Positions 9,649 to 61,668 are shown, numbered from the stretch's first letter. The stretch is DNA of 64,000 bases from Candidatus Dojkabacteria bacterium (GCA_035444565.1 DAOMOX010000001.1:194335-258334); one strand, 5' to 3'. Translations and numbers: made by a program. Notes: generated by a model from the letters alone, not told the origin.

Positions 9649-9651
9649 AAA

Positions 9652-14682: not shown

Positions 14683-14783
14683 TGAAAATAAATAAATGGG
14701 TTAAATTGGCCCGATTATATTACTTTCAAAGGCTTTTGTAAAGCAAAGTACAGAAAATTTAATTATTTTTAGCTAAAAAGAAA

Positions 14784-14808: not shown

Positions 14809-14828
14809 TTAGTTCTTATAATTGCTTA

Positions 14829-43830: not shown

Positions 43831-43938
43831 ATATTCATAATAATATTTAAGAAATATGACATTATTAACACAAAAATAACAGATATTCAGGAATTTTTCA
43901 GTTTTTTATTATTAAATTAAATAGATTAATTTGATAAA

Positions 43939-44106
43939 TGGATATCTTCATAAAACATCTCGAGAATATTATTCATGCTACTCTCAGAAAGCAAGAGCGT
44001 AATTATTTATCGGAGCTCAGATTGACAGAGGCTTTACTTCGGTCTGATATTAATGAACTAAACACCAAAATCGATAAACTTATAGAAATTCGATCACCTT
44101 AAAGAA
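43939..44106 (+). CDS. possible small ORF (55 aa) in the 330-nt pyrH-nnr spacer
   Basis: MDIFIKHLENIIHATLRKQERNYLSELRLTEALLRSDINELNTKIDKLIEIRSP. It is below the 60-aa track cutoff and has no homology support. Confidence 0.15.
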
Positions 44107-44162
44107 CAAATTTATAATATTACTGTTGTAATAAACTCCCATTGCTTTAGAATATAAGTACA

Positions 44163-45671: not shown

Positions 45672-45789
45672 TCCCAACCCTCGCAATACTTATTTCTCTT
45701 GTTGTTAAATTAAACAGTTTATATAGTATTTTAAAGATTTGCTTTCAGCATTCCTGAAAGTTACAATATAAAAAATTTCAATTATTCAG

Positions 45790-47482: not shown

Positions 47483-47734
47483 GAAAAAACTTTCCATAAC
47501 TAAAGTGAGAAATGCACTGAATTTATATAATCATGATATTTGACAGCATATCTTAGGTTGGTATGTTTTGTCCGACAACGTTTTCCACCTCCACAGACCA
47601 GACAAACAATAACATACCCTTAGAAATCTCTATCAACCTACTAAAGTGACACACCCTCTCCGAGTGCTCACTGTTTACGAATGAAGTACCTATCTAGTAT
47701 AATTAGCATTACTTATTCTAACTTAACCTGCCCC

Positions 47735-47756
47735 TCCTGATTCGTCGGGATTTTTT
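47735..47756 (+). promoter_or_regulatory. terminator-like hairpin UCCUGA-UUCG-UCGGGA plus U6, ending 13 nt before the start codon of the 1582-aa GT fusion gene. It could terminate an upstream ncRNA or act as a leader or attenuator
   Basis: tcctgattcgtcgggatttttt, one G-U pair in the stem. It lies at the 3' end of a 286-nt, relatively GC-rich non-coding spacer (47483-47768). Confidence 0.4.
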
Positions 47757-47768
47757 GACTTTCAAAAT

Positions 47769-50700
47769 ATGTTTGATTTGGAAATCGTCATACCCGTTCT
47801 CAATGAAGAGAAGGCAGTGGCAGAATTAATTAAAAGAATAGACAAGAGTCTGAGATCCGAAAAGATTTCGTATAGGATGATTTTTGTTGATGACCATTCT
47901 ACCGACAAAACGGTTGAGATAATTCAATCATTTAAGAAAAAATATCCAATTCTTCTTCACACAAAGACAGGGAAACCTGGCAAAGCATACTCTATCCTTG
48001 AAGGTGCAAACCTTGCGTCATCTGAAAAAATTGCAATGCTTGACGGCGACCTGCAGTACCCACCTGAGGTACTTCCCCATATGTTCAGACTTTCTGAAAT
48101 CTACGGAGTGGTTGTGGCAGATAGAAAAAAGGAACATCTGTCTTTATTGCGAAGAGCTCTATCTAATCTCAATTCACAGATGATTGGGAAGTATCTGTTG
48201 AAGCTTGACTGTGACTCTCAATCCGGACTAAAAGTATTCAGAAAAGAAATAATTGAACAATTAAACAAAAAAGATTTGCAACCTTGGGCATTGGACATGC
48301 CTTTACTATACGCTGCATTGAATATGGGTTATAAAATTGGAAACGTAGAGATTGACTTTGTAGATCGAGCTTATGGAACATCCAAGGTTAACTTCATCAA
48401 AACCACATTTGAAATTATCTCCACCGCATTCTCACTTAAATTTTTCTCCTCAAAGATTGCATCTATTAAACCGGAAAGAGATTCAATGCTTGGGTCGGGG
48501 GTCATCTATAAAAACAAAAAGTATATAACCCACACCACACTTCCGCATTCCGAATCTGCGCTTTATACGTTTACCCGAAAACAGAAGCTAATTATTATCA
48601 GTTTGATTGTGGGTATATTGGCGGGATTGATACTTAATCCACTAAACGCCTTGATTGTGATTGTGGCAATTTTGAGTTTGATCTATTTTGCAGATGTTGT
48701 TTTTGGAGCGTATGTATTGGCGAAAAGTTTACATTATCCACCAGAGTTAACGTTTGATGCAGAGGAATTAAATAATCTGAAAACAAAAGATCTACCTACC
48801 TACAGTATTCTCTGTCCATTATATAAGGAGGGCAACATATTGCCTGAATTCGTAAAATCCATTAGAAATCTCGACTGGCCAAAGCGTAAATTAGATGTCT
48901 TAATACTGCTTGAAAAAGACGATAAAGAAACACTTGCCGCCGCAAAGAAGCTTAGACTTCCAAAGTATATAAGAGTTATTGTTGTTCCCGATTCACAACC
49001 CCGGACCAAACCAAAGGCTTGTAATTATGGTCTACAATTATCGAAAGGAGAATATGTAGTAATTTTTGATGCAGAAGACAAACCAGACCCACTTCAATTA
49101 AAGAAAGCGTATCTCGGATTCCGAAAAAGCGGAGAGAAGGTCTTCTGTTTGCAATCTAAACTTAATTACTACAATCCAGACGATAATCTTCTGACCAGAC
49201 TTTTTACAGCGGAATATTCTCTGTGGTTCGATGTCATCCTTCCAGGATTGCAATCAATCAAAACAACAATTCCACTTGGAGGAACAAGTAATCACTTCAG
49301 GACAAAGCAATTGATTACCATGCAAGGATGGGACCCATTCAATGTTACAGAAGATTGCGATCTCGGTGTCAGAATCTTCAAAGCAGGATATTCAACAGCA
49401 ATTATCGACTCAACGACATATGAAGAGGCAAATAGCTCCCCGAAAAACTGGGTTAGGCAACGTTCTCGGTGGATTAAGGGCTATATGCAAACATATTTGG
49501 TTCATATGAGAAATCCTCTAAAATTTCTACGAGAGCACGGAATTCATGCTCTCATCTTTCAATTAATTATAGGTATGCGAATCAGCTTTATGCTGATTAA
49601 CCCTTTACTATGGTTGGCTACTTTTGTCTATTTTGCATTTAGACCATTTGTTGGGGAATACATCGAAGCTCTTTATCCATCATGGATTTTCTACATCGCA
49701 GGAATTTCTCTTGTCGGTGGAAATTTCATGTACATATTTAATTATATGATTGGATGTGCAAAGAAGGAACACTACGGTTTAATCAAGTATGTCTTCTTTA
49801 TCCCTCTTTATTGGATTCTTGCTAGTGTCGCCGCATTCAAAGCAGCGCAACAACTAATTCTCAAGCCACACTTCTGGGAGAAGACCCATCATGGATTACA
49901 TCTCTCGACCAAAGAAACCAACCAAATTGTAAAAGAAGAATTAAAATCGAAACGAGTATCAGAGAAAAATAAATTTAATTTTAGACCCAAAATCAGTCCC
50001 TACTTCAATAAAGCTACAACATTGCTAAAGGGTGGTAGTTTTGGAATAACACTATTAGTTGGGGCATCCGTAGGTGCCAATTTCCTTGATTTCTTAACTA
50101 GTACTTACCTTGGCAGAAATCTTGGTTCTGAAGAATTTGGATTAATTGGATTGATGGGAAGTTTTATTTTCATAGTCAATTTGATCGCTGCTGGAATAAA
50201 TAAAACGGTATCCCACCAGACTGCTTTCGTGTATGGGAAATACGGGAAACCTGTTGGAAGATTGTGGTATGAACATCGTAACAAAGTTATTAAATTATCC
50301 ATCCTCTTTACTCTTATATGGTTGTTGGTAGTTCCGTTTTCAGAAGACTTTTTTAACTCGCATACACTCTTTCCTTTTCTTGTATTCACTCCCGTTTGGG
50401 TTTCCTTAATGCTTAAAGCATGGGATGGAGGTTATCTAGAAGGAAGTCTTAAATTCACCTGGTTGGCAGTCCTTACACTAGTAGCAGCATTTTCAAAACT
50501 ATTGTTCTCAGTAATATTTGTAACTTTTGGATTGGAACACCTCGTTTACGCAGCTGGACCGATATCCTTATTCCTCGGATTCTGTGGAGGTTGGATAGTC
50601 GCTAGGAAAATAGCTCATCAAAATACTGATACTACTACTAAGCCTTCAAGGGCAAATATGAGATTCTCTCGAGCATTCTTAGCAACTGCTACCATAGCAA

Positions 50701-52517
50701 AAGTGTCGTCAATATCGTTTCTAAGTCTAGATTTAATCTTCGTAAAACATTTTTTAACAGCCACCGAGGCAGGAGAATACGCACTTCTCGTTTTAGTAGG
50801 AAGAATAATCTACATCGTAGGAGGTTTTTCTTCACAGTTCATACTTCCAATAATTAGCAAAGAAAGCGGGGAAGGTATTAAGAAAAGTAAATCTTTTAAG
50901 ATAATCATGCTTAGTGTGATTGTCTCAACTCTGTTAGTCTTTTTAATGGTCGGACCTCTTGGTTCCACGACGATTCCATTGTTATTCGGGAATAATGCAT
51001 TGCCGATAACCCCTTACTTGACTCCATTCGCCCTAGCCATGGTACTATTCACAATTGCCTATAGTCTTGTTACTTATCATCAAGCACGTAAAGAGTACGC
51101 ATTTTCTCTTATCGGTATAGTCACTGCTATTGTGCAATTTCTATTTCTATATCTTTTTCACTCAAACATCGGTCAAGTTGTCTCGGGAATGCTTCTAAGT
51201 GGAGCTTTCTACTTGATAACTACACTCATAATGCACATCTATTATGAGAAGGTAATAGCTATTCAGTCAAACTTGGTGGATCTTTGGGACTTGATTGTGA
51301 ACCCCAAACGTCCAGCCTTTGGAATGGACACTGTTAACAAATTAAACATTCTAATTTATAACTGGAGAGACACAAAACACGTATGGGCAGGGGGGGCTGA
51401 AGTATATGTACATGAACTTGCAAAACAGTGGGTAGAAAAAGGTAATCACGTCACTGTTTTCTGCGGTAACGATGGATTATGTGAACGTCATGAAATTGTT
51501 GATGGTGTGAACATTATACGCCGGGGAGGATTTTATACAGTATATGTATGGGCAATCCTCTACTATATTCTGAGATTAAGAGGAAGGTATGATGTTATAG
51601 TCGAAAGCGTTAATGCTATGCCCTTTTTCACTCCACTTTTTTCGAGGATACCTAAATTAGCCATAATCCATCATGTACATAGTGATATCATCTTGAAAGA
51701 ACTTAAGTTGCCATTGACTCGTATTCCACTCGCTGTAATTACTAAATTTATTGAGAGTAAAGTAATGCCGATTGTTTACCAAAACACTCAAATGGTTACC
51801 GTTTCAAAATCAAGCAAAGAAGATATGGAAAAGATTGGTTTTGGAAAGAATAAAGCGATACAAATCATCAACCCCGGAATCGATTTAAATATACTTAAAC
51901 CTAGTCCAAAATCAAAAACACCTACCCTCTTATACCTTGGCAGATTAAAGCCATATAAATCTATTGATACACTTATCAAAGCAACTAATGAATTGAGAGA
52001 GGTTTTTCCAAATATTAGAGTGAAAATTGCTGGTTTTGGAGAAAGCCGAAAAGACTTAGAAAGTTTGACTAGAAAATTAGGTCTGCAGAGATATGTAGAA
52101 TTCCTAGGAAGGGTATCAGAAGCAAACAAAGTCCGCTTATTAGGGGAAGCTTGGGTATTTGTACAACCATCAACCTTCGAAGGTTGGGGTATCTCAATTT
52201 TAGAGGCCAATGCTTGTGGGACACCAATTGTGGCTTCAAGGGTCCCGGGACTCATAGACTCTGTTAAAAATCCATCAACCGGTTATACTGTAAAAGTAAA
52301 AGATGAAAAAGCATTTGCCGAAGCAATCCAAAAACTATTGCAGGATAATAAATTAAGAAAAAGATTCTCTGCGAACTCAATAAAATGGGCAAATAATTTT
52401 GGTTGGGAAGGCAAAGCTAATGATTTTATGAATATTGTACTGCAAGAGGTACATAACGCAGATACCGTTCACTTGTTCGGGGAACAGTTACATAGCCGTG
52501 GTGAGAATGTTGACTAA
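47769..52517 (+). CDS. four-module membrane glycosyltransferase fusion (1582 aa): Dpm1-like GT2, processive QxxRW GT2 synthase, MOP/Wzx-like multi-TM flippase region, GT4
   Basis: Module 1 (aa 1-230): EIVIPVLNE, FVDDHSTD, MLDGDLQ (Dpm1-type). TM pair at about aa 255-315. Module 2 (aa about 325-585): SILCPLYKE, VIFDAEDKPD (DxD), TED, QRSRW at aa 564-568, then a 4-TM bundle typical of processive synthases. Module 3 (aa about 745-1250): about 12 TM with Wzx/Polysacc_synt-like periodicity. Module 4 (aa about 1265-1582): GT4 with ...VQPSTFEGWGISILEANACGTPIVAS. It is a single uninterrupted ORF in the supplied track. Confidence 0.85.
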   Translation: MFDLEIVIPVLNEEKAVAELIKRIDKSLRSEKISYRMIFVDDHSTDKTVEIIQSFKKKYPILLHTKTGKPGKAYSILEGANLASSEKIAMLDGDLQYPPEVLPHMFRLSEIYGVVVADRKKEHLSLLRRALSNLNSQMIGKYLLKLDCDSQSGLKVFRKEIIEQLNKKDLQPWALDMPLLYAALNMGYKIGNVEIDFVDRAYGTSKVNFIKTTFEIISTAFSLKFFSSKIASIKPERDSMLGSGVIYKNKKYITHTTLPHSESALYTFTRKQKLIIISLIVGILAGLILNPLNALIVIVAILSLIYFADVVFGAYVLAKSLHYPPELTFDAEELNNLKTKDLPTYSILCPLYKEGNILPEFVKSIRNLDWPKRKLDVLILLEKDDKETLAAAKKLRLPKYIRVIVVPDSQPRTKPKACNYGLQLSKGEYVVIFDAEDKPDPLQLKKAYLGFRKSGEKVFCLQSKLNYYNPDDNLLTRLFTAEYSLWFDVILPGLQSIKTTIPLGGTSNHFRTKQLITMQGWDPFNVTEDCDLGVRIFKAGYSTAIIDSTTYEEANSSPKNWVRQRSRWIKGYMQTYLVHMRNPLKFLREHGIHALIFQLIIGMRISFMLINPLLWLATFVYFAFRPFVGEYIEALYPSWIFYIAGISLVGGNFMYIFNYMIGCAKKEHYGLIKYVFFIPLYWILASVAAFKAAQQLILKPHFWEKTHHGLHLSTKETNQIVKEELKSKRVSEKNKFNFRPKISPYFNKATTLLKGGSFGITLLVGASVGANFLDFLTSTYLGRNLGSEEFGLIGLMGSFIFIVNLIAAGINKTVSHQTAFVYGKYGKPVGRLWYEHRNKVIKLSILFTLIWLLVVPFSEDFFNSHTLFPFLVFTPVWVSLMLKAWDGGYLEGSLKFTWLAVLTLVAAFSKLLFSVIFVTFGLEHLVYAAGPISLFLGFCGGWIVARKIAHQNTDTTTKPSRANMRFSRAFLATATIAKVSSISFLSLDLIFVKHFLTATEAGEYALLVLVGRIIYIVGGFSSQFILPIISKESGEGIKKSKSFKIIMLSVIVSTLLVFLMVGPLGSTTIPLLFGNNALPITPYLTPFALAMVLFTIAYSLVTYHQARKEYAFSLIGIVTAIVQFLFLYLFHSNIGQVVSGMLLSGAFYLITTLIMHIYYEKVIAIQSNLVDLWDLIVNPKRPAFGMDTVNKLNILIYNWRDTKHVWAGGAEVYVHELAKQWVEKGNHVTVFCGNDGLCERHEIVDGVNIIRRGGFYTVYVWAILYYILRLRGRYDVIVESVNAMPFFTPLFSRIPKLAIIHHVHSDIILKELKLPLTRIPLAVITKFIESKVMPIVYQNTQMVTVSKSSKEDMEKIGFGKNKAIQIINPGIDLNILKPSPKSKTPTLLYLGRLKPYKSIDTLIKATNELREVFPNIRVKIAGFGESRKDLESLTRKLGLQRYVEFLGRVSEANKVRLLGEAWVFVQPSTFEGWGISILEANACGTPIVASRVPGLIDSVKNPSTGYTVKVKDEKAFAEAIQKLLQDNKLRKRFSANSIKWANNFGWEGKANDFMNIVLQEVHNADTVHLFGEQLHSRGENVD

Positions 52518-53454
52518 ACAAATCAAACAAAATACCCCAAATCAGAACTTCCCTGAAAAGATAGAGCATTTTTCCTTTGTTCACAATCTCGGAGAATTTG
52601 GGAAAGATTCTTCTTTTCACTTCGCACTTTATAGGGACACTGAAGGGAATGAATATGTCTGTAAACTATTTAAGGGAAAAAAGAATAGTCTTAAGTACAG
52701 GTCGATAAAAAATGAAATATCTGCTTACAAAGCTCTTAATCAAAGTTCTCCAACCCTACAAAGCCCATTAGGTTTCGAGATTTCAATTCCAAAAATCTAT
52801 AGCACTTATGAAAACGATGAGATTGTCTGCTTTATTATGGACAAGGTGTCAGGAAACTCCTTAGACAATGAGTCAATTGACAGAATAATTCAATCCTACC
52901 AAGCTATAGCAGAATATTTACTAAAATTTTCCATAGAAGCTGATTTAAGTAAAACAGGTGTACTTAGAAGGAATTTCATTCAATTTTTCCTCTTGTATCA
53001 CTACTATTGCCTTCGAGTAATTCTTAAAAATCCTGAATTAATATTGAAGATTATTAATACTATTCCAGTCTTTTATAGAGGAATTATTAACTTTAGTATT
53101 GATAGAACGAATACACTTGTTATCCGAGACTTAGCAAGTAATAATAATATATTTATTGATAATAAAAAGCTATTAATAATTGATTTAGAATCTGCAACAA
53201 TAACTCATCCAATTATTCAGTTGTCCAGTTTTGTTGTTGTGGAGTCGGCAAACAAAGATTTTCTATTAAAGTTGTGTAATTCAGAAATTACTAAATCTAT
53301 CATGGGGAATCATAGAAATCTACTAATATTTAAAGCCATGTTGGTTTACGGTGCTATGGTCGATATCGTTGCTAACTATATGACCGATAAAGATCCAGTT
53401 AAAAAATCATCCGTGAATTTAATTAATGAAACATTCAAACTGAAACTATCATGA
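52507..53454 (+). CDS. kinase-like phosphotransferase (APH/choline-kinase fold), probable sugar or small-molecule kinase
   Basis: VIRDLASNNNIFID (catalytic-loop-like, aligning with HxDLxxxN) and LIIDLESA (DFG-equivalent IDxE). The start is taken at the ATG at 52507 (MLTKQ...), an 11-nt overlap instead of 83 nt. Confidence 0.45.
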   Translation: MLTKQIKQNTPNQNFPEKIEHFSFVHNLGEFGKDSSFHFALYRDTEGNEYVCKLFKGKKNSLKYRSIKNEISAYKALNQSSPTLQSPLGFEISIPKIYSTYENDEIVCFIMDKVSGNSLDNESIDRIIQSYQAIAEYLLKFSIEADLSKTGVLRRNFIQFFLLYHYYCLRVILKNPELILKIINTIPVFYRGIINFSIDRTNTLVIRDLASNNNIFIDNKKLLIIDLESATITHPIIQLSSFVVVESANKDFLLKLCNSEITKSIMGNHRNLLIFKAMLVYGAMVDIVANYMTDKDPVKKSSVNLINETFKLKLS

Positions 53455-54551
53455 AATTAATAATCTCCACATACGACGATATTAAAAACCCGAATTATGG
53501 GGGTGGGGGAGCAATTGCTCTGCATGAGTTGGCAAAAAGACTCACTAGAAAATTTGAAGTCACGGTCATCAGTTGGAACCATTCTGGGATAAAGAATGAA
53601 AATATTGATGGAGTGGAATATGCACGTATTGGGTTTAGTTTTATTAGTCCAAAGATTGCGATGTTTATATTTCAAATGATTCTACCGTTTTTTGCCATAT
53701 TCAAAAGCTTTGATCTCTGGATTGAGAGTTTTGCTCCACCCTTCACTACCGCATTTCTACCAATATTTACTAGAAAACCCGTAGTCGGTGTAGTACACAT
53801 GCTCGCTGCCGAAGATATGAAGAGGAAATACAAAGTGGACCTTGGCAGAATTGAAAATGCAGGAATTAGAAAATATAAACATATTGTTTCAACTCAAAAT
53901 ATGATTCGCGAAAAGATTCTAAGCGTAAATCCGCAATGTAATTGTAAAGTAATCAGTAACGGAATTGAAAAAGTTTATCCCGAAAAAGTTACGAAGAAAA
54001 AGCAGTTCTTATTCCTAGGTCGGATTGAGATTAATCAAAAAGGGTTGGATTTACTCATAGACACTTTTAAGAAATTTAATAAATTATCAAAAGAAAAATA
54101 CAAATTAGTAATCGCAGGCTCTGGGCTGGATTCTGACTTGAAAAGACTCAAACAACTCATCAAAGAATCTGAATTAGACAACCAGATTGTTCTCGCAGGT
54201 CGTGTCGAGGGGAAATCAAAAGAAACCTTGATGAAAGAGTCAACAGCTATGATTCTTACATCTCGTTTTGAAACATTTTCTATGGTAGCACTGGAGTCGC
54301 TAGCTTTTGGTCTACCACTCGTTACATTTGATATTGAAGGCTTGAAATGGATTCCCGATAATGTTGTCAGAAAAGCAGAATCGTTTAATACGGATGACTT
54401 AGCGAACGTCTTATTAGAAATTATCAATAATAAAAAATTACAAGAGGAAATGCGTATCAACGGTTTGAAATATGCAACGAAATACACCTGGGATAATATC
54501 GCAAAAGAGTATGAAGATTTAATTGATGAAATAAAAAATGCAAAAAGATAA
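53451..54551 (+). CDS. GT4 glycosyltransferase
   Basis: N-terminal NYGGGGAIALHELAKRL. C-terminal SRFETFSMVALESLAFGLPLVTFD (EX7E). Confidence 0.8.
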   Translation: MKLIISTYDDIKNPNYGGGGAIALHELAKRLTRKFEVTVISWNHSGIKNENIDGVEYARIGFSFISPKIAMFIFQMILPFFAIFKSFDLWIESFAPPFTTAFLPIFTRKPVVGVVHMLAAEDMKRKYKVDLGRIENAGIRKYKHIVSTQNMIREKILSVNPQCNCKVISNGIEKVYPEKVTKKKQFLFLGRIEINQKGLDLLIDTFKKFNKLSKEKYKLVIAGSGLDSDLKRLKQLIKESELDNQIVLAGRVEGKSKETLMKESTAMILTSRFETFSMVALESLAFGLPLVTFDIEGLKWIPDNVVRKAESFNTDDLANVLLEIINNKKLQEEMRINGLKYATKYTWDNIAKEYEDLIDEIKNAKR

Positions 54552-55311
54552 TCAATTAATAAAAGAAATCATTACTAAAAAACTTAAATGCGTATTTATA
54601 TCTCCACATTTTGATGATGCAATATTATCTTGTGGAGGTTTGATGCTTGAGTTAGCGGGGAAAACCGAGATGACTGTCGTAAATGTCTTCTCAAAGGCAA
54701 ACGCAGGTCCCCATACTCTTTCCGCTCGACGATTTCTCAAATTTTCTGGAAATCATAGTAGTGCACAAGAACTCTATTCTGCGAGAGAATTAGAAGATAA
54801 ATCAACCCTGCAAAAGTTAGGAGTAAAAGTAATAAACCTTGGGCTAGAAGACGCATTGTTTAGAAAGAAAAAATCCAAAAGTATTTTTAGCAGAGTACTC
54901 CCTGAACTTAATCATGTATATCCGACATACCCATTGCATATTATCAGAGGTGCAAATCCAAACGATCCAGCCTTTAAACAAGTCAAAAACAAATTAAAAA
55001 AATTATATAAAGAGAACAATATTATCTATTTCTCACCATACGGGATTGGAAATCATGCTGACCATCAAGTGGTAAGCTCAGTTAGTAGAGACTTATTCAA
55101 AAAACTAGTGTTGTATTCTGATTTTCCATATAACATACGATTAAACGATTATGGTTCTGACATAGACGGATTTAAGAAAATCGAGTTAATTCCAAATCAG
55201 CTGGAAAAAATACAATTAATAAAAATGTATAAAACACAATTTGAGGGATTATTCCCAAACGGAGAAGTTAAAGAGCACAACGAGGTTTATTTTATAAGAA
55301 ACAAAAAGTGA
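54538..55311 (+). CDS. PIG-L/LmbE family N-acetylglucosaminyl deacetylase
   Basis: VFISPHFDDAILSCGG (PHxDD motif) and GNHADHQ (HxDH motif). Confidence 0.75.
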   Translation: MQKDNQLIKEIITKKLKCVFISPHFDDAILSCGGLMLELAGKTEMTVVNVFSKANAGPHTLSARRFLKFSGNHSSAQELYSARELEDKSTLQKLGVKVINLGLEDALFRKKKSKSIFSRVLPELNHVYPTYPLHIIRGANPNDPAFKQVKNKLKKLYKENNIIYFSPYGIGNHADHQVVSSVSRDLFKKLVLYSDFPYNIRLNDYGSDIDGFKKIELIPNQLEKIQLIKMYKTQFEGLFPNGEVKEHNEVYFIRNKK

Positions 55312-56357
55312 ATGTAAGAATTTATAAAACTACAGATGAAAAACTAATCAAAGAATGGAACGAACTTTGGGAAAAGTCTTCTCATGCACACTTTTTCAAT
55401 TCATATGCCTGGTTTGCTGTTTGTAAAGAAATATTCAAGCCGAGAAATATACGAATTGCTTGTGTTTACAACGATAATGAATTATTAGCAATTTACCCCT
55501 TGTTTGAGCAAAAAAAATATGGCGTAAAAACATATGGCAATCCAGGAGGTAGATTCGCAGACAAATTCTGTTTATTGGTTCTTGATTTAGATGAAAATGT
55601 AATCCGTGAACTGTTAAAGATTCTAAAGACATTCACTGTTTCAATAGAAGAAGTTTCCGAACTATTCTATCCTTGGTTTACTTCTAGTGGTTTCACCAAA
55701 TCCCCTCTAGTCGAAGAAACATCAATACTAAGATTAGGTGATGATCCCTATCGATATATGCATAAAAAGAAGAAAAGAAAGATGCTAAACAAATATAATA
55801 GAAACTTCTCAAATACTAAGTATATTAGATTTAATGGTACTGACGTTAAACGTAACCTCAAATACGTTGAACAAATCGATACGAAAAGCAGGAAAAAGCT
55901 TTCCGGGAAAGAAGTGACATCAGATGGGGAACAATATGAACTATTTAAAAATCTAGCTGAAAAATTCCCACAATATTTAACTTTAGATGTGCTTTTCGTA
56001 CAAGAAAAACCCATCGCTTATGAACTTGGAATTTTATCGAAGGACAAGGAGATTGGATATCAAACAGCTTTTGACGAGGAATTTAAATACTTTGAGCCTG
56101 GACGTATCATTCTTGTTTACATCTGGGAAAGCATGAGAAAAGAAGGAATAGAGATTTATGACTGGGCGAGGGGAACAAATATATTAAAACAAGATTTTAC
56201 AGAATATTTTGAAAAACAATATAAGTTCTATGCCGCAAACAAATTGGTTCTGAGTTTTTGGTATTTACTTGACTATAGTAAAGATTTGATTCTAAACAAT
56301 GATTCCTTGTACAGAGCATACTTGTTTTTTAAAAATCGATTAATTAATTTCCTGTAA
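55308..56357 (+). CDS. GNAT-fold acyltransferase, BioF2-like/CelD/FemAB-related (Acetyltransf_6-like)
   Basis: N-terminal EWNELWEKSSHAHFFNSYAWFAVC pattern and a size of about 350 aa. It is a paralog of the next gene. Confidence 0.45.
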   Translation: MNVRIYKTTDEKLIKEWNELWEKSSHAHFFNSYAWFAVCKEIFKPRNIRIACVYNDNELLAIYPLFEQKKYGVKTYGNPGGRFADKFCLLVLDLDENVIRELLKILKTFTVSIEEVSELFYPWFTSSGFTKSPLVEETSILRLGDDPYRYMHKKKKRKMLNKYNRNFSNTKYIRFNGTDVKRNLKYVEQIDTKSRKKLSGKEVTSDGEQYELFKNLAEKFPQYLTLDVLFVQEKPIAYELGILSKDKEIGYQTAFDEEFKYFEPGRIILVYIWESMRKEGIEIYDWARGTNILKQDFTEYFEKQYKFYAANKLVLSFWYLLDYSKDLILNNDSLYRAYLFFKNRLINFL

Positions 56358-56359
56358 TA

Positions 56360-57436
56360 ATGTCTCCGAAATATCAAATAAAAACTTTTTACGAGATTGA
56401 TCAAAACCTGATTAAAGAGTGGGAATCACTATGGATTAACGCAGTAAATGCGACAATATTTAACTCATATCCATGGTTCAAGGCTACTTCAAAAACTAAA
56501 CAATTGCATAAATGTGTTATTTATCTCTGTTACCAAAACGATGAACTTGTGGCAATCTTACCCCTCGTGGAGGAAAAGCGATTTGGAATCAAAGTGTTAA
56601 CAACTCATCTAGGAAGTTATATTTCAGATGAAGCAATTTTATTAAAGGAATATAATGCACAACTGCTAAAAGAACTAATAGTAGAGATTTCCAAGAACAA
56701 CAACTTATACCTAACCCGGGTAAGCTCCACAAATGTCCAAGACCTAAAAAACATTTTTCCTCAAATATTCTTCTCTGTTATTGGTGTAAATCCGATTATT
56801 AATCTCAAGGGTGACCCATTATCTTCGTTTTCAAAGTCATCAAGAAAGAAACTAGAAAGCATACTAAAGAAAGCAGGAGACATGATTGTACTCAAGACAT
56901 TTTCAGAAGATGATAATCTAAATGAATTGCTAAAAGTAATGATTGATATTGATACAAATAGTGGGAAGCAAAAGAATTCAAGAGATATATTCACCAAAGA
57001 GGAAGAAAAAAGATTCTTCGCCAATTTGATTAACTACTGTAGGAAATATATTGAAATATCAATACTTTATTACAATGATAAACCCATAGCTTACACATTC
57101 AACCTGAAGGGTGGAAAAGTATATTTTGGTTACCAAACTTCATATCTATTTGAGTATAGAAAATTGTCTCCAGGGAAATTAGTATTAATGAGATCTCTTA
57201 AAGAAATTGCACATTCGGGATATAATCTACTGGACTGTGGAGAAGGTCTTAGCGCATTTAAACAAGAATTTACTAAAGATTATAAACTGAAATATGATCT
57301 TCATTATTCGAGGAATTCTTTGGTGATGATTTGGTGGAAATTAATAATTTTCGCAAGAAGAGCAAAACAAATACTTCTCCCAGAGAAAAATAGTAGGGAT
57401 TATGAATTTTTATTTACTACAAATTTAAAAGGTTAA
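56360..57436 (+). CDS. GNAT-fold acyltransferase, BioF2-like/CelD/FemAB-related (paralog)
   Basis: EWESLWINAVNATIFNSYPWFKAT with the same layout as 55308-56357. Confidence 0.45.
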   Translation: MSPKYQIKTFYEIDQNLIKEWESLWINAVNATIFNSYPWFKATSKTKQLHKCVIYLCYQNDELVAILPLVEEKRFGIKVLTTHLGSYISDEAILLKEYNAQLLKELIVEISKNNNLYLTRVSSTNVQDLKNIFPQIFFSVIGVNPIINLKGDPLSSFSKSSRKKLESILKKAGDMIVLKTFSEDDNLNELLKVMIDIDTNSGKQKNSRDIFTKEEEKRFFANLINYCRKYIEISILYYNDKPIAYTFNLKGGKVYFGYQTSYLFEYRKLSPGKLVLMRSLKEIAHSGYNLLDCGEGLSAFKQEFTKDYKLKYDLHYSRNSLVMIWWKLIIFARRAKQILLPEKNSRDYEFLFTTNLKG

Positions 57437-57461: not shown

Positions 57462-59069
57462 ATGGAAAAAGTCATAAAATTAAAAAAATTTAAAAGTATG
57501 TTTTCAACAACATTACAAATAGTAGTATTAATATTCATAACATTGGTACTATTTGCCTCTATTAGAGGAACTGCAGGAATTCCTACAGCTGAAGAACTAA
57601 ACAGCCCAGTTTGGAAAGAACAAGGACCATTTGAATTATCCCCAGAAAGAGGACGTTATGCTTTAACATATTCAATCATTGAAGATAAATCATTTGATTT
57701 CTCTATACCTGTCGCAAGATTTACTACTCCCGACCTTGGTTTTACAGATGGCAAATTTGTCTCGTTGTTTGCTCCTGGCGTTTCCTTCTTGGTTATTCCG
57801 GGATACATTGTCGGACATTACCTAGGGATGTCTCAAGTGGGAACATATTCTGCAATTGCTGTCTATGCAATTCTAAACTTTATATTGATTCGTCAGATAA
57901 GTAAATTATTGGGGGCAAGTAACCCAGCTTCAGTAATTGCAGGGATGACTTTCATATTCGCAACTCCCGCCTTTGCGTATGGTGTAAGCCTTTACCAACA
58001 TCATATATCTACATTCCTGATACTTTTAGCTACATACTTACTAGTCAGATTTGAAAGGAAATGGTTAGCTATAGTTGGAATTTGGTTCCTTTGCGGATTA
58101 GGGATAGCTGTAGATAATCCAAATCTATTGATGATGATGCCAATAGGTATAGTTGCATTATTGCAATCTCTAGATATTGAAGAGAAGAAGGAAGAGATGA
58201 GTATAAGAATTTATCCGAAATATATTATTGCAATAATTGGAGTACTTATACCAGCTTTAGGATTCATGTATTTTAATTATGTATCTTATGGAAATCCTTT
58301 ACAGTTAGGAGGTACAACAAATAGTGTAGATGCGATAAACGAAGAAGGTAAACCAGTTACTTCTGAAGGTATACTGACCCCTGAAGAACTTGCACAAGCC
58401 GGAGAGTTTGAAGAGGGAGAACGTTCTTCTGTCGGGTTTTTCGAGGCTCGAGACATGGTCAACGGTCTTTATATCCACCTTTTCAGTGAAGACAGAGGTG
58501 TGATATATTTCACACCTGTAATCCTGACCGGAATTATTGGAATTTTCGTACTTTATAGATCAAAAAATAAACATCTCCCATTACTATTAAGTATCGTCGG
58601 AGTGAATCTGATACTCTACTCAATGTGGGGTGACCCTTGGGGAGGATGGGCATTTGGATCAAGGTATTTGATACCAAGTTATGCCATTATGTCGATTTTC
58701 ATTGCAATGGCATTAACCAGATATTCCAGAAATATTCTGGTCTTGCTTGTTTTTGCCGTACTTTTTGTCTATTCAACTGCAATAAACACACTAGGAGCTA
58801 TCACTACAAGCGCAATACCTCCGAAAGTACAAGCTATTCCGCTCGAAGCTTTGACTGGTAAAGAAGAAAAATTCAACTACAAAAGAAGCTGGGATTTCCT
58901 AAACAATAATGGTTCTAAGTCATATTTTTACCAGGAATTTCTGGAAGATAGTGTTCCAGCAAAAGATTTTTATATCACTCTTGTGTCAGCGATATCCACA
59001 GTATCAATAATGACATTAATCGGAGTCTATTTAACAAAAAGAAAAACTAAAGATGAAAATAAAGATTGA
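57462..59069 (+). CDS. GT-C fold membrane glycosyltransferase-like protein (PMT/ArnT/PIG-mannosyltransferase-like)
   Basis: 535 aa with about 11 TM and an extracytoplasmic loop after TM1. Overall GT-C topology. Confidence 0.5.
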   Translation: MEKVIKLKKFKSMFSTTLQIVVLIFITLVLFASIRGTAGIPTAEELNSPVWKEQGPFELSPERGRYALTYSIIEDKSFDFSIPVARFTTPDLGFTDGKFVSLFAPGVSFLVIPGYIVGHYLGMSQVGTYSAIAVYAILNFILIRQISKLLGASNPASVIAGMTFIFATPAFAYGVSLYQHHISTFLILLATYLLVRFERKWLAIVGIWFLCGLGIAVDNPNLLMMMPIGIVALLQSLDIEEKKEEMSIRIYPKYIIAIIGVLIPALGFMYFNYVSYGNPLQLGGTTNSVDAINEEGKPVTSEGILTPEELAQAGEFEEGERSSVGFFEARDMVNGLYIHLFSEDRGVIYFTPVILTGIIGIFVLYRSKNKHLPLLLSIVGVNLILYSMWGDPWGGWAFGSRYLIPSYAIMSIFIAMALTRYSRNILVLLVFAVLFVYSTAINTLGAITTSAIPPKVQAIPLEALTGKEEKFNYKRSWDFLNNNGSKSYFYQEFLEDSVPAKDFYITLVSAISTVSIMTLIGVYLTKRKTKDENKD

Positions 59070-60657
59070 AAAAGCAAAAATTAACAATTTAACTCATTTC
59101 CTAGAGAAGCATGCACTAACGTTAATCGTATTAACCCTTATTTTAGTAGCAACTGCCACATGGTATGGGTTCTATCAAAATGGATTAGGGCTCGCATACA
59201 ACGACGCTCGCTCACATCTAAATATCGGAAGACGTGTTGTAGAAGGTCTAAAACCAGGACTTGCACAGATTGGATCTGTTTGGTTACCACTACCTCATTT
59301 GCTCATGGTTCCGACCATATGGAATGACTTTTTCTGGCATTCGGGACTCGCTGGAGCAATTCAATCAATGGGTTCTTTTGTTATCACAGGTATGTTAGTT
59401 TATCTTTATTTGAAAAAGCTCGGAGTGTCACTATTTGCACGATTCTTTGGTGTCGCTATGTTTGCCCTGAATTTAAATGTATTGTATCTACAATCAACCG
59501 CGATGACCGAGCTACTTTTGATTGCTACCATGACTGCTGGTTCGTATTACTTGTTATTGTGGGCTCAGAAGGAAAATATTGTTGATCTCTTAAAGTGCTC
59601 TCTTTTTATAATGCTTTCCACTTTGATTCGATATGATGGCTGGTTCTTGATTTTCATAGCTACTTTGATAGTGGCATTCCAAATATTTCGCAAGAAAGGC
59701 TACAAGGCCACAGAAGGTATGTCGATCATGTTTATGTCTCTTGGTGGTTTAGGTATTGCGCTTTGGGTACTCTGGAATTTACTGATTTTCGGAGACCCAT
59801 TATTCTTTGCATTTGGTCCTTTTTCAGCACATTCTCAGCAGGAACAGTTATTAGCAGCAGGGAATCTCCCTACAAAGGGCGATATACTACTCTCAATCAA
59901 AATGTATCTATATGCCCTATTTTTCAATTCTTATACATTACCGGCGATTCTAGGGCTATTTGGAGGTATAAGTCTATGGTTTAACAAGAAAATTAATATA
60001 AATGCTCGAATTGCCACACTGGCTTTGATTGCTCCATTTATTTTCAACATTCTAGCACTTTACCTTGGTCACTCCGTTTTGTTTATTCAAGGGATTTCTG
60101 GAGACACATGGTTCAATGTCCGCTATGGAGTCATGCTTGCCCCTTCTATTGCCATTTTCGTGGCATATTTGACCGACAAAGTGAAACCAATGAGATTCGT
60201 TATAGTGGGTCTTACTTTGCTGGTTCTGACATTTGCTTTTCTAAATCAAGATGCTGTAACAATTGATGATGCACGAGTTGGCTCTAGTCAGAAAAATGTT
60301 TCCGAAGTATCCGACTGGCTAGCTGATAACGCTGGAGACAAAGAAGGCTTTATTCTAATTTCTGCTGCCTCTCATGATGCTATAATCTTTTCGTCAGGAA
60401 TGGATATGAGTAGATTTATCCATGAAGGAACAGGACTTTACTGGGATACTGCTCTCGGAAACCCTGACCATTGGGCTAGATGGATAGTGATGAGAACCCA
60501 TGACGAAAATGATTTAGTATTCAGAGAAATCAACAAAGAAGCATGGGAAGATCATTACACACTTGTAGATCATTATCCTTTTGCAGATATCTACGAACTA
60601 AAACCAGAGTCAATGACAAATTTAAACACAGAACCTGTTCTTAAGAATGTGAAATAA
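59053..60657 (+). CDS. GT-C fold membrane glycosyltransferase-like protein (second, with a C-terminal extracytoplasmic domain of about 150 aa)
   Basis: 534 aa with about 11 TM. The first loop is LAYNDARSHLNIGRRV. It overlaps the previous gene by 17 nt. Confidence 0.45.
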   Translation: MKIKIEKAKINNLTHFLEKHALTLIVLTLILVATATWYGFYQNGLGLAYNDARSHLNIGRRVVEGLKPGLAQIGSVWLPLPHLLMVPTIWNDFFWHSGLAGAIQSMGSFVITGMLVYLYLKKLGVSLFARFFGVAMFALNLNVLYLQSTAMTELLLIATMTAGSYYLLLWAQKENIVDLLKCSLFIMLSTLIRYDGWFLIFIATLIVAFQIFRKKGYKATEGMSIMFMSLGGLGIALWVLWNLLIFGDPLFFAFGPFSAHSQQEQLLAAGNLPTKGDILLSIKMYLYALFFNSYTLPAILGLFGGISLWFNKKININARIATLALIAPFIFNILALYLGHSVLFIQGISGDTWFNVRYGVMLAPSIAIFVAYLTDKVKPMRFVIVGLTLLVLTFAFLNQDAVTIDDARVGSSQKNVSEVSDWLADNAGDKEGFILISAASHDAIIFSSGMDMSRFIHEGTGLYWDTALGNPDHWARWIVMRTHDENDLVFREINKEAWEDHYTLVDHYPFADIYELKPESMTNLNTEPVLKNVK

Positions 60658-61668
60658 ATGATGGATTTTATTGAAAAGCTAAGAAGACTTAGCCTCAAAC
60701 AAATTATATCTGGGCTTTTTATAGCAAGTTTAATTTCTTTACTAGTTTATCTCTACATTTCATCGGTGCAAGGTCCAAATAAACCAGCTAATCTCTGGGA
60801 AGTTCAATCTATCGACACTATGAAATATTCTAGGGATTTAGCTAGAGAAAAACTAAACGAAGCAACGTTTGACGAGGAAATTGATTATCAAGTTAGTAAT
60901 ATCAAAGAGATGGGTGCTAGTCATGTAGCACTCGGAACTCCATACGATGATGAGTTTATACCTTATCTAGAAAGGTGGGTTAATACTGCAAGAAAGTATC
61001 GCCTAAAAGTTTGGTTCCGGGGGAATTTCTCAGGATGGGAGCAATGGTTCAATTACGAGGGGATAACTCCAGAAAAACATCAGGAACTAATTGAAACATT
61101 CATTATTAATAATCCGCAACTTTTCCAGGATGGAGACATTTTCTCACCATGTACCGAATGTGAAAATGGAGTATTGGGAGACCCGAGACTCACTGGTAAT
61201 GTCAATGACTATAAAATATTCTTGGTCGAAGAATATGATATAGCCAATACCGCATTCGATAGAATTGAAAAAGACGTTACAGTAAATTTCCCGATGAACG
61301 GAGATGTCGCAGAATTAATTATGGACAAACGGATGACTCAAAATCTGGGAGGAGTAGTTGTGGTGGATCATTACGTCGAAAGACCTGAACAATTAGCAGA
61401 AGACGTAAGACATTATGCAAAATTAAGCGGGGGCAAAGTAATCCTAGGTGAAATAGGTGTTTATATTCCTGGAATCCATCCCCAAATGAATGATTTCGAA
61501 CAGGCAGACTGGCTTGAACAAGCTTTAACATTGCTTGCAGAAGAGGAAGACCTCGTAGGTATTAATTATTGGGTATTTAGCGACGGGACCACTCAACTAT
61601 GGGAGAAAGACACTCGTGTGAAAAGGAAAGCGGCTGATGTTTTACAAAATTTCTATAAACCCAAGTAG
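60658..61668 (+). CDS. membrane-anchored TIM-barrel glycoside-hydrolase-like protein (GH5/GH113-like, tentative)
   Basis: N-terminal TM. KVILGEIGV is a candidate nucleophile-Glu strand, and ...NPQLFQDGDIFSPCTECENG is a candidate acid/base region. GINYWVFSDG may be a C-terminal barrel strand. Confidence 0.35.
   Translation: MMDFIEKLRRLSLKQIISGLFIASLISLLVYLYISSVQGPNKPANLWEVQSIDTMKYSRDLAREKLNEATFDEEIDYQVSNIKEMGASHVALGTPYDDEFIPYLERWVNTARKYRLKVWFRGNFSGWEQWFNYEGITPEKHQELIETFIINNPQLFQDGDIFSPCTECENGVLGDPRLTGNVNDYKIFLVEEYDIANTAFDRIEKDVTVNFPMNGDVAELIMDKRMTQNLGGVVVVDHYVERPEQLAEDVRHYAKLSGGKVILGEIGVYIPGIHPQMNDFEQADWLEQALTLLAEEEDLVGINYWVFSDGTTQLWEKDTRVKRKAADVLQNFYKPK

Follow-up and report, generated by a model that had tools for sequence, protein, structure and literature searches.

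We found that, in an uncultivated member of the Patescibacteria, a single gene at 47769..52517 (+) of the window, by which we mean the whole 64-kb stretch of DNA analysed here, encodes a predicted inner-membrane protein of ~180 kDa and 18 transmembrane (TM) helices in which four glycan-assembly modules (M1 to M4) are joined. A literature search for this architecture, or for the envelope glycosyltransferases of Patescibacteria, returned nothing relevant; we found no published description of the four-module arrangement, and the kinds of module from which it is built are already known. The gene is predicted to head a conserved surface-glycan locus that recurs in dozens of related genomes of Patescibacteria, and the best explanation, which we consider probable, is that the protein makes, flips and uses a lipid-linked sugar in coupling with a polymer synthase. 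The parts of the reading frame are as follows.

47769..48473 (+), M1, GT-A/GT2 polyprenyl-phosphate glycosyltransferase, aa 1-235, with DGDLQY at aa 92-97
48474..48773 (+), linker and TM1-TM2, the N-terminal TM hairpin of the synthase, aa 236-335, with a conserved T254-H255
48774..49538 (+), catalytic domain of M2, a cellulose/PNAG/chitin-synthase-type GT2, aa 336-590
49539..49904 (+), C-terminal bundle of M2, four TM helices, aa 591-712, ending in WEKTxHG
50031..51263 (+), M3, 12-TM flippase module of the MOP superfamily (Wzx/PST-like), aa 755-1165
51351..52448 (+), M4, GT-B/GT4 retaining glycosyltransferase, aa 1195-1560

According to the ORF listing, the reading frame runs over 1582 aa from an ATG start to its stop with zero internal stops, as the first-pass annotation had claimed. 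A call for the identical 1582-aa product is also found on the contig of origin (ENA ERZ773355 NODE_6; 216,726 bp, coverage 34.9), and at least 120 full-length homologues (1513-1620 aa, identity 46-95%, query coverage 98-100%) stem from independent assemblies, some of them from contigs of up to ~0.99 Mb. Since there are this many independent full-length homologues and the source contig carries the same product, a chimeric join or a missed frameshift is excluded, and the module junctions, at which a stop codon, a frameshift or a chimeric join had been envisaged, are unbroken in dozens of genomes. With this architecture the protein belongs to a large family: 1292 matches were counted among the scored candidates, and the MOP module falls into 549 clusters at 50% identity (E<=1e-30). 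Public records that carry a name give only "glycosyltransferase", "hypothetical protein" or, at JGI, "glycosyltransferase XagB" or "cellulose synthase/PNAG synthase-like glycosyltransferase". Searched as a whole, the protein matched the Pfam families PF00535 (aa 6-163), PF13641 and PF13632 (343-621), PF13439 (1208-1374) and PF00534 (1380-1540), and all four module identities proposed earlier are supported by Pfam, NCBIfam and PDB sequence matches together with the fold of M3. Residue conservation was counted over 37 aligned homologues, and the catalytic or signature residues of every module are kept in 31-37 of the 37, nearly all of them being invariant.

M1 matched PF00535 at 1.1e-35, and its relatives in the PDB (phmmer) are the Dol-P-Man synthase 5mlz (1.4e-20, aa 4-233), ArnC (2e-14) and GtrB (8e-12). 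These DPMS, ArnC and GtrB matches span ~210-230 aa, while the next GT2 structures reached 2e-6 or weaker over ~90-100 aa only; among NCBIfam models, ArnC (2.4e-19) and PgfS (2.6e-19) were matched. M1 is therefore predicted to belong to the DPM1/GtrB/ArnC-type class of polyprenyl-phosphate GT2 enzymes. The donor, metal and acceptor-phosphate residues of PfDPMS have been described, with R117, R131 and S135 binding the polyprenyl-phosphate group (PMC5526996). The described residues map to E13, D42, D92, D94, Q96, R119, R128, S132, R200 and K206 of M1, each conserved in 31-37 of the 37 homologues. D92-G-D94-L-Q96-Y97 aligns with 89-DADLQH-94 of PfDPMS (D92 and D94 in 37/37, Q96 in 34/37); R117, R131 and S135 correspond to R119 (37/37), R128 (36/37) and S132 (33/37), and the A-loop residues R202 and K208 to R200 (36/37) and K206 (31/37). 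Like the dolichol- or polyprenol-phosphate mannose synthases and their relatives (PfDPMS, Ppm1, ArnC, GtrB), M1 aligns across the full catalytic domain, with both the DxDLQ motif and the Arg/Arg/Ser site for the acceptor phosphate retained. In contrast to PfDPMS-type enzymes, it lacks a TM domain of its own, since the hairpin that follows is part of M2, and it carries Tyr in place of PfDPMS H94 and an invariant Asp, D176, in place of K178. Because of this last replacement, M1 is not a strict DPMS.

The linker region shows a hydropathy peak at 274-313. In six loci in which M1 is absent or separately encoded (L007, L012, L014, L024, L066 and L073), the linker and TM hairpin remain with M2; we therefore rejected the reading of the hairpin (aa 273-318) as a GtrB-like anchor of M1. 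The M2 catalytic domain carries QRSRW at aa 564-568 (nt 49458-49472), and D385, K414xKAxN419, D434xED437, T527ED529 and Q564RSRW568 are invariant in 36-37 of the 37 homologues. Its Pfam matches were PF13641 (7.5e-27) and PF13632 (4.9e-22), and a PDB sequence search matched BcsA (4hg6/5ej1) at 1e-11. Against the equivalog models, M2 scored 93.9 bits for TIGR03937 PgaC (1e-26; cut-off 422.3) and 71.3 bits for TIGR03030 CelA (4.5e-20; cut-off 699.1). By sequence it is a BcsA/PgaC-like GT2 and, with scores below the equivalog cut-offs, an orthologue of neither PgaC nor BcsA. The hydrophobic segments around the GT domain number 2 + 4 and are rich in invariant residues. Those of the C-terminal bundle lie at ~593-612, 614-632, 639-660 and 674-697; many columns between 597 and 709 are invariant, and the bundle has an HMM match of its own in every locus. 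M2 shares the D, DxD, TED and QxxRW motifs with the processive membrane GT2 synthases (BcsA, PgaC, hyaluronan and chitin synthases, NodC), and it also resembles them in its KAxN nucleotide-binding motif, its flanking TM bundle and its best matches, PgaC and BcsA. It differs from them in lying far under the equivalog cut-offs and in being covalently joined to three other modules. Processivity and the type of product are assumed from the motifs. No PilZ, BcsB or PgaD partner of M2 was detected.

The middle region had been described as a Wzx/MOP-like stretch of about 500 aa; the resemblance is borne out, while the region is in fact ~410-450 aa long with 12 TM helices. The M3 segment of this protein gave no Pfam match even at E<=10. 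Among 22 homologous M3 segments, however, 17 matched PF01943 Polysacc_synt (best 2.8e-12), and PF13440 was the sole other MOP-clan family among the matches listed (E<=1). Since a profile built from the 22 segments matched no PDB sequence, a fold comparison was needed. The AlphaFold2 model of M3 (pLDDT 85.5, pTM 0.84) was compared with the PDB by Foldseek, and the best 50 matches were all MATE, MurJ or WzxE structures, with TM-scores of 0.54-0.73. In relatives, M3 is also found stand-alone or as an M3-M4 protein. On the strength of its homologues and its modelled fold, M3 is assigned as an independent module of the MOP superfamily; the same fold and the stand-alone M3 proteins lead us to reject the idea that this stretch is just the C-terminal TM bundle of the synthase. 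With the Wzx/PST flippases, which include its structural relatives WzxE and MurJ, M3 shares 12 TM helices, the MOP fold and an N-in, C-in topology (positive-inside rule), as well as the PF01943 matches of its homologues; unlike them, it is joined on both sides to glycosyltransferases.

M4 matched PF00534 (1.1e-44, 152.5 bits) and PF13439 (2.6e-15, 57.3 bits), both above the gathering score, and its relatives in the PDB are MshA (3c48/3c4q, ~1e-18), PimA, PimB' and TarM. Both glutamates of its EX7E motif, E1471-x7-E1479 (nt 52179-52205), are present in 37/37 homologues, and G1208, G1209, R1392, K1397, E1471 and E1479 are conserved in 36-37 of 37. The earlier assignment of a GT4 with an EX7E motif is confirmed by these two families and the invariant glutamate pair. 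The TM count of 2 + 4 + 12 = 18 places an even number of helices between each pair of GT domains, and the short loops hold 25.8 K+R per 141 aa on the cytoplasmic side vs 6.2 per 67 aa outside. By hydropathy and the positive-inside rule, all three catalytic GT domains are predicted to be cytoplasmic, in one consistent and continuous topology, which had been singled out for checking.

The genes downstream, as far as 62817, had been described as glycan-related, and this holds; two conserved membrane proteins among them, GTC1 and GTC2, which are the most informative partners of the fusion protein, had been missed. The downstream features are as follows.

52435..53454 (+), kinase-like gene of APH/choline-kinase fold, immediately after the fusion gene (called from ~52507 in ENA)
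53451..57436 (+), variable cassette of a GT4, a PIG-L-family de-N-acetylase and two FemAB-like PF13480 genes (Pfam)
53451-54551 (+), GT4 of the cassette (Pfam)
54538-55311 (+), PIG-L-family de-N-acetylase of the cassette (Pfam)
55308-56357 and 56360-57436 (+), the two FemAB-like PF13480 genes of the cassette (Pfam)
57462..59069 (+), GTC1, conserved 535-aa polytopic membrane protein, probably a GT-C glycosyltransferase
59053..60657 (+), GTC2, conserved glycosyltransferase of the GT-C fold, 534 aa, whose C-terminal domain is extracytoplasmic
60658..61668 (+), possible glycoside hydrolase, extracytoplasmic and with a membrane anchor
61750..62817 (+), mannose-1-phosphate guanylyltransferase, for the supply of GDP-mannose

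The kinase-like gene is kept beside the fusion gene in 23 loci; a homologue matched PF01633 (7.8e-5) and PF01636 (6e-4), and the copy in this genome gave a weak CotS match alone. Elsewhere the cassette position is occupied by differing sets of GT2, GT4, CE4, epimerase, DegT, methyl-, acetyl- and pyruvyl-transferase genes. In the 53 loci with both the fusion gene and GTC1, the order is fusion gene, variable cassette of 1.2-7.8 kb, GTC1, GTC2 and the hydrolase-like gene. GTC1 lies downstream in 55 of 80 loci (>100 bits). It matched NCBIfam NF047440, "LA_3751/LA_3752 putative glycosyltransferase" (3.1e-17, under the cut-off), one of 15 homologues matched PMT_2 (2.6e-8), hhalign aligned GTC1 with GTC2 at E 1.3e-4 (probability 54%), and E58 and D91, located after TM1, are invariant; GTC1 is probably a GT-C glycosyltransferase. 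GTC2 is a GT-C glycosyltransferase, and its family, with >2400 sequences at 61-75% identity and without a Pfam model, is a clear annotation gap. Neither the GTC1 nor the GTC2 profile matched a PDB sequence. The hydrolase-like gene follows GTC2 in 26 loci, a count bounded by flank length. Three of 12 homologues gave weak PF11790 Glyco_hydro_cc matches (5.7e-5), eight of the 12 carry an extra CarboxypepD_reg domain, and its profile gave weak matches only, the best being a carboxypeptidase-regulatory-type domain of a SusC homologue; its product may be a glycoside hydrolase. The mannose-1-phosphate guanylyltransferase matched TIGR01479 (1e-58, with a score below the curated cut-off) and PF00483 (9.2e-20), and no match to it was found in the fetched flanks of other loci. 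A promoter and terminator scan gave nothing above chance. A replication origin at the GC-skew minimum was rejected, as there is no DnaA-box cluster.

In the reading that we favour, M1 would act at the inner leaflet, charging polyprenyl phosphate with a sugar taken from a nucleotide donor; as the last gene of the locus encodes a GDP-mannose pyrophosphorylase, this sugar may be mannose. M4, whose role is the least constrained, and the glycosyltransferases of the cassette may extend the M1 product or another lipid-linked intermediate, and M3 would flip the lipid-linked saccharide to the outer leaflet. Neither an initiating phosphoglycosyl transferase nor a Wzy polymerase was found among the scanned genes of the 64-kb window or in 10 cassette families, and either may lie elsewhere in the genome; since neither turned up in the locus, the substrate of M3 is probably not a classical Und-PP-linked repeat unit. 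GTC1 and GTC2, being of a class that uses lipid-linked donors only, would transfer the flipped saccharide onto an extracellular acceptor, and family properties suggest that the GT-C enzymes use the donor made by the GT2. M2 would polymerise a β-linked glycan from nucleotide sugar and thread it through its own 6-TM channel, and this glycan would be the likely backbone or acceptor. Joined in one chain, the modules would channel scarce lipid carrier among donor synthesis, flipping and polymer export. The first-pass annotation had already placed the modules in pathway order and considered a protein that would generate and export a lipid-linked donor of its own; both are inferences.

Characterised precedents made of separate proteins exist in the GtrB/GtrA/Gtr* systems and in the polyprenyl-phosphoribose synthase, MATE-family flippase and GT-C systems (PMC11127046), as well as in the Group A carbohydrate, in which GacI is an Und-P GlcNAc transferase, GacK a member of the Wzx family and GacL a GT-C (bioRxiv 10.1101/180810). 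The parts list of these three-component systems (GtrB/GtrA/Gtr*; GacI(J)/GacK/GacL; polyprenyl-phosphoribose synthase/MATE flippase/GT136) is the same as here and lies in one locus: M1 corresponds to the polyprenyl-P-loading GT2, M3 to the flippase, and GTC2, with GTC1 probably, to the GT-C enzyme, so that synthase, flippase and GT-C components are all encoded together. As with M3, the flippase is of the MOP family in GacK and in the three-component system of Citrobacter. In gacL mutants, the lipid donor accumulates. The present locus differs from those systems in that a single polypeptide carries donor synthase, flippase, BcsA-type polymerase and GT4, that the conserved GT-C-type proteins are a pair of paralogues where the others have one, and that the backbone machinery appears to be of the synthase type rather than an ABC transporter or Wzy. 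Overall, this would be a three-component system (GtrB-type synthase, flippase, GT-C) hard-wired to a synthase-type polymerase and a GT4.

The N-glycosylation system of Haloferax volcanii (Agl) comprises the Dol-P glycosyltransferases AglJ and AglD, the Wzx-like flippase AglR and the GT-C enzymes AglS and AglB. It combines DPM1-like GT2s acting on polyprenol monophosphate with a MOP flippase and GT-C enzymes, without a phosphoglycosyl transferase, and in this resembles the locus as scanned here. Agl is archaeal, consists of separate proteins and lacks a synthase module, and the resemblance is a lead.

A search of related genomes for co-linear orthologues returned the same order, M1, M2, M3, M4, in fused and split forms alike, the order of modules being equal to the order of genes in the split forms. 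The full fusion is present in ~45 loci, while in ~11-13 loci [M1-TM-M2] and [M3-M4] are encoded as two genes, the first ATG of the second lying <=4 nt from the stop of the first in ten; further variants lack M1 or M4. Two-gene and M1-less variants appear at >=6 separate places among fused forms in an NJ tree without support values. An alternative genetic code behind the split forms is unlikely, as most differ in frame and have ordinary TAA stops with an ATG 1-4 nt downstream. Fusion is not obligatory. Because M1 is dispensable in some lineages, being missing from five of the six loci named above (all but L073), coupling of M1 to M3 cannot be the sole reason for the assembly.

These split forms bear on a second reading, in which two independent machines were merely joined: [M1-M2], and a Pel-like [M3-M4] of the kind proposed for PelF and PelG, in which the GT4 would build a glycan independently of any lipid carrier and the polymer would leave through the MOP module. 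The usual break indeed falls exactly between M2 and M3, [M3-M4] proteins of ~800 aa are common, and the cassette often includes a de-N-acetylase (PIG-L or CE4). We nevertheless regard this reading as quite unlikely: no PelG family was among the matches listed for the 22 M3 homologues (E<=1), which went to PF01943 and PF13440, no PelF model was among the 25 NCBIfam matches listed for M4, and the scan of locus genes showed nothing like the c-di-GMP receptor PelD/PelE, so that a PelG/PelF identity of M3-M4 is not supported. Furthermore, the two halves remain adjacent, co-oriented and usually translationally coupled or fused, and the conserved GT-C partners would be left without the flipped lipid-linked donor that they need.

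A lipoglycan or glycolipid pathway like that of mycobacterial PIM/LM/LAM has a similarly small chance in our judgement. There, M2 would form a glycolipid, M4 would extend it in the cytoplasm like PimA or PimB', M3 would flip it, and on the outside GTC1 and GTC2 would lengthen it, using polyprenyl-P-mannose from M1, like Ppm1 with MptA/MptB. Against this, M2 is matched most strongly by PgaC and BcsA and carries a conserved TM bundle such as translocating synthases typically have; the locus showed no inositol or lipid-anchor genes, no counterpart of ManC was found in the flanks fetched from other loci, and cassette content varies between genomes as it does in an O-antigen or capsule locus. Finally, an artefact, whether separate genes merged by mis-assembly, sequencing error or an over-long ORF call, or a middle region that is the synthase's TM bundle, could appeal to the two-gene versions in other genomes and to the missing direct Pfam match of this copy's M3, but we reject it as having practically no chance, given the >=120 full-length homologues, the fusion in ~45 species-level genomes, the same product on a 35x-coverage, 217-kb contig, invariant residues in every module, and an M3 that is modelled as a complete 12-TM MOP transporter and occurs stand-alone elsewhere.

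We therefore return to the reading in which a lipid-linked sugar is made, flipped and used in coupling with a polymer synthase. The argument that the modules work as one machine is based on their covalent fusion and on the conserved company of GTC1 and GTC2. The assembly of bacterial glycans is usually presented as a set of distinct routes (synthase-, Wzx/Wzy- and ABC-dependent, and three-component decoration). This fusion protein covalently unites hallmarks of two such routes, namely the BcsA-type synthase of one and the donor-synthase/flippase pair of another, with a GT4 in addition. To our knowledge, the envelope chemistry of Patescibacteria is essentially unknown and their genetics is not yet possible. 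The protein family is abundant yet unannotated in these organisms, and as one 180-kDa chain it makes a good candidate for cryo-EM and for expression in a heterologous host. The natural fusions and fissions are Rosetta-stone evidence for a physical coupling of making, flipping and using a lipid-linked sugar; as far as we know, flippases for polyprenyl-monophosphate sugars are still largely inferred. In a more speculative version, which we consider rather doubtful, the locus would encode a hybrid bacterial route, not recognised before, without phosphoglycosyl transferase or Wzy: M1 would start on polyprenyl monophosphate in a manner like archaeal and eukaryotic Dol-P pathways, M4 and the cassette would extend, M3 would flip, and the two GT-C-type enzymes would polymerise the saccharide or graft it onto the β-glycan of M2, giving a major envelope polymer of Microgenomates and related Patescibacteria. 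If this is true, the covalent link between M1 and M3 would be the first direct pointer to a flippase of polyprenyl-monophosphate donors.

The reading frame at 47769..52517 on the plus strand of the window begins with an ATG and encodes 1582 aa with zero internal stops in the ORF listing of the window, and its base composition is uniform. The first-pass annotation had read it as one uninterrupted frame, and this was borne out: gene calling on the source contig (ENA ERZ773355 NODE_6; 216,726 bp, coverage 34.9) gives the identical 1582-aa product, and 1292 of the scored candidates matched in a homologue search with the fusion protein, the top 120 all being 1513-1620 aa long at 98-100% query coverage and 46-95% identity (for example, OGC97782.1 / UniRef100_A0A1F4ZCJ9 and QQG47187.1). 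Where the source gives a name, the homologues come from Microgenomates, Amesbacteria, Curtissbacteria and Woesebacteria; products, where named, are 'glycosyltransferase' or 'hypothetical protein', and in JGI 'XagB' or 'cellulose synthase/PNAG synthase-like glycosyltransferase'. Invariant columns are present in all modules of a 37-sequence alignment of these homologues. Since the same product occurs on the source contig and the homologues are full length, sequence comparison indicates that the four-module fusion is real and under selection, and it is extremely improbable that the ORF is an artefact. The modules and the conserved partner genes are:

aa 1-235 (+): M1, predicted polyprenyl-phosphate GT2; PF00535 match
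aa about 273-712 (+): M2, BcsA/PgaC-like GT2; PF13641 and PF13632 matches
aa about 755-1165 (+): M3, Wzx/PST-like MOP module; PF01943 in homologues, AlphaFold2 model, Foldseek
aa 1195-1560 (+): M4, GT4; PF00534 (1.1e-44) and PF13439 (2.6e-15)
57462-59069 (+): GTC1, membrane protein; NCBIfam putative membrane glycosyltransferase family (3.1e-17)
59053-60657 (+): GTC2, membrane protein; conserved partner of the fusion gene
after GTC1 and GTC2: hydrolase-like protein, 336 aa, membrane-anchored, weakly glycoside-hydrolase-like

The best solved-structure match of M1 was the Pyrococcus Dol-P-Man synthase (1.4e-20, aa 4-233), followed by ArnC (2e-14) and GtrB (8e-12); these three cover the whole catalytic domain, while the remaining GT2 structures align with the first 90-100 residues only, at 2e-6 or weaker. 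With residue roles taken from PfDPMS (PMC5526996), alignment placed the metal and donor motif 89-DADLQH-94 at D92-G-D94-L-Q96-Y97, the residues of the acceptor-phosphate site (R117, R131 and S135) at R119, R128 and S132, and the A-loop residues R202 and K208 at R200 and K206. These counterparts are kept in 31-37 of the 37 homologues, except at the positions of H94, which is Tyr in M1, and K178, which is an invariant Asp (D176). The full-domain matches and conserved residues mark M1, by every available sequence test, as a polyprenyl-phosphate glycosyltransferase, in keeping with the Dpm1-type GT2 first proposed, although not a strict DPMS. M2 matched the PgaC model at 1e-26, the CelA model at 4.5e-20 and BcsA structures at 1e-11, and D385, K414xKAxN419, D434xED437, T527-E-D529 and Q564RSRW568 are invariant in the 37 homologues, as expected from the earlier reading of a cellulose/chitin/hyaluronan-synthase-type GT2 with QRSRW. 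Hydropathy places two TM helices ahead of the catalytic domain and four, rich in invariant residues, behind it. M2 scores far below the curated equivalog cut-offs for PgaC and CelA; it would work like the cellulose/PNAG-type synthases, yet is an orthologue of neither.

The weakest point of the earlier case was the identity of M3. The window's own M3 segment had no match at any threshold in a Pfam search, and no PDB sequence was found with a profile built from 22 of its orthologues. However, 17 of these 22 orthologous segments matched PF01943 (Polysacc_synt, the Wzx/PST family; best 2.8e-12), PF13440 being the sole other MOP-clan family listed for them. The AlphaFold2 model of the window's M3 was confident (pLDDT 85.5, pTM 0.84, 12 long helices), and all 50 listed Foldseek PDB matches to it belong to the MOP superfamily (MATE, MurJ, WzxE; TM-score 0.54-0.73). 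Its K+R distribution gives an N-in/C-in topology. When the M3 profile was run against a full set of 1.84 billion representatives, 549 clusters scored E<=1e-30. Among the 150 best are about 12 proteins with all four modules, about 50 of the M3-M4 type (about 725-960 aa) and about 50 in which M3 stands alone (about 405-520 aa). The PF01943 homologues, the predicted MOP fold and the separate forms therefore make M3 an autonomous MOP module and rule out that it is the synthase's own TM bundle; the proposed flippase-like middle module thus survives on homologue profiles and the model. M4, whose relatives include MshA, PimA, PimB' and TarM, keeps GG, R1392, K1397 and E1471-x7-E1479 in 36-37 of 37 sequences and reads as a standard GT4 with the EX7E motif previously noted.

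A cytoplasmic catalytic domain is a requirement of each of these GT families. Because the 18 TM helices are arranged as 2 + 4 + 12, each GT domain is separated from the next by an even number of them, and short loops carry 25.8 K+R per 141 residues on the GT side versus 6.2 per 67 on the opposite side. Hydropathy and loop charge thus agree with the continuous topology that had been put forward for checking, in which the three catalytic domains all face the cytoplasm.

In order to follow the modules across genomes, 80 loci were fetched from species-representative genomes via a conserved M3 peptide, and their six-frame ORFs were scanned with per-module HMMs built from the alignment. The loci are Patescibacteria, with many Microgenomates lineages and some Parcubacteria; many of them (L003, L007, L009, L013 and others) derive from TPA records whose titles read 'uncultured Gammaproteobacteria', 'Pseudomonadales', 'Bdellovibrionales' or 'Bathyarchaeia', which is probably mislabelled MAG taxonomy. 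The co-linear orthologues that were to be sought in CPR genomes were found, with a full M1-TM-M2-M3-M4 gene in about 45 complete loci. A two-gene form occurs in about 11-13 loci, where a gene for [M1-TM-M2] (about 750-780 aa) precedes one for [M3-M4] (about 800-860 aa). Ten split loci have no more than 4 nt between the stop of gene 1 and the first ATG of gene 2, a spacing that is a signature of translational coupling, not sequencing errors. M1 is absent in some loci (L007, L012, L014, L024, L066) and encoded separately as a 267-aa protein in L073; M3 stands alone in L032, L053, L065 and L071; and L023, L029, L037 and L054 carry C-terminal additions. Some of these last genes reach 1792-1884 aa, and L054 ends in an additional GT4 domain, giving a five-module version. 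Module order is constant in all variants, and the TM hairpin (aa 273-318) stays with M2 in every one. In a crude neighbour-joining M3 tree, without support values, split forms are interspersed with fused ones in at least six distinct positions, so fusion or fission seems to have been repeated in evolution; the fused and split forms supply Rosetta-stone evidence for joint action of the modules. In the Levybacteria locus L035, a full fusion gene is directly followed by a stand-alone MOP gene (+ strand, 7751-13935), and a second M1-TM-M2 gene runs in the opposite direction (reverse-complement coordinates 14255-16480); this looks like a duplicated system.

The fusion gene opens a tight co-oriented run ending at 62817. 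When the ORFs of all 80 loci were clustered against one another, a recurring plan emerged: the fusion gene comes first, followed by a cassette that varies in content and spans 1.2-7.8 kb, and then by GTC1, GTC2 and the hydrolase-like gene. The fusion gene and GTC1 occur together in 53 loci. Like O-antigen and capsule loci, conserved flanks enclose a variable middle. Cassette content varies by genome, with GT2 genes of about 305 aa in 64 loci, alongside GT4s, CE4 or PIG-L deacetylases, epimerases, DegT aminotransferases, oxidoreductases, methyl-, acetyl- and pyruvyl-transferases and a gene resembling APH/choline kinases; the locus genes scanned included neither a phosphoglycosyl transferase nor a Wzy. 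This kinase-like gene lies directly after the fusion gene in the window (52435-53454) and in 23 related loci, and hints at a phospho-substituent on the glycan, e.g. phosphocholine or phosphoethanolamine. At 53451-57436, two tandem FemAB-like (PF13480) genes are grouped with a GT4 and a PIG-L-family de-N-acetylase; FemAB-like homologues flank only four other loci (L001, L035, L064, L080), and the grouping may point to a decoration with amino-acylated glucosamine. GTC2 has >2415 homologues at 61-75% identity, none with a Pfam family and, where named, 'hypothetical' or 'uncharacterized protein'; the Foldseek result agrees with its GT-C assignment. Profile comparison links GTC1 weakly to GTC2, and one GTC1 homologue matched PMT_2. 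The GT-C catalytic carboxylate sits shortly after TM1, and both proteins have invariant acidic residues there; GTC1 is probably a GT-C. PF11790 was matched by 3 of 12 homologues of the hydrolase-like protein, and in this genome the run closes with a GDP-mannose pyrophosphorylase.

Elsewhere in the window, a second giant ORF (14829-19826, minus strand, 1665 aa), with three SdrD_B stretches and SpaA, DUF11 and DUF642 domains, looks like a large surface adhesin, and a radical-SAM + GNAT protein of Elp3-like architecture is encoded at 29219-30973 (minus strand). Gene orientation switches at 43830/44163, nearly all ORFs from about position 6 kb up to there being on the minus strand and all genes afterwards on the plus strand, and the lowest cumulative GC skew falls at 48-50 kb. 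The region (about 43830-50000) thus behaves like an origin; a DnaA-box cluster is absent there, and the entire 64 kb contains no tRNA genes.

GT-C enzymes act on the membrane's outer face and require polyprenyl-phosphate- or polyprenyl-diphosphate-linked donors, as restated for three-component systems (PMC11127046), and the fusion protein combines exactly the two parts that this calls for, the polyprenyl-phosphate glycosyltransferase M1 and a Wzx-type flippase, M3. The same logic is distributed over separate proteins in GacI, GacK (Wzx family) and GacL (GT-C) (10.1101/180810) and in the Gtr and pentofuranose systems (PMC11127046). Beside the observed module identities, conserved catalytic residues, topology, fusion/fission pattern and synteny, we infer from this donor need and these precedents all substrates, the direction in which intermediates pass from one module to the next and what M4 does, as a make-flip-transfer sequence: M1 would make a lipid-linked sugar, possibly extended by M4 and cassette transferases, M3 would flip it, and GTC1 and GTC2 would transfer it outside, while M2, by analogy with BcsA/PgaC, would make and extrude a beta-glycan as the probable acceptor or backbone. 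We favor this overall model with moderate confidence. A Pel-like reading of M3-M4 agrees with the natural break point of the split forms, but no PelG-family match is listed for M3 and the GT-C partners are left unexplained, making it unlikely; a PIM/LM-like lipoglycan, to which mannose-related hints point, is similarly doubtful. The chemistry is not of a new kind, because each module falls within a known family. The four-module architecture was not found described in the literature on this architecture or on Patescibacteria envelope synthesis; together with its evolutionary lability and a conserved locus with two unannotated GT-C-type families, it appears to be new to description.
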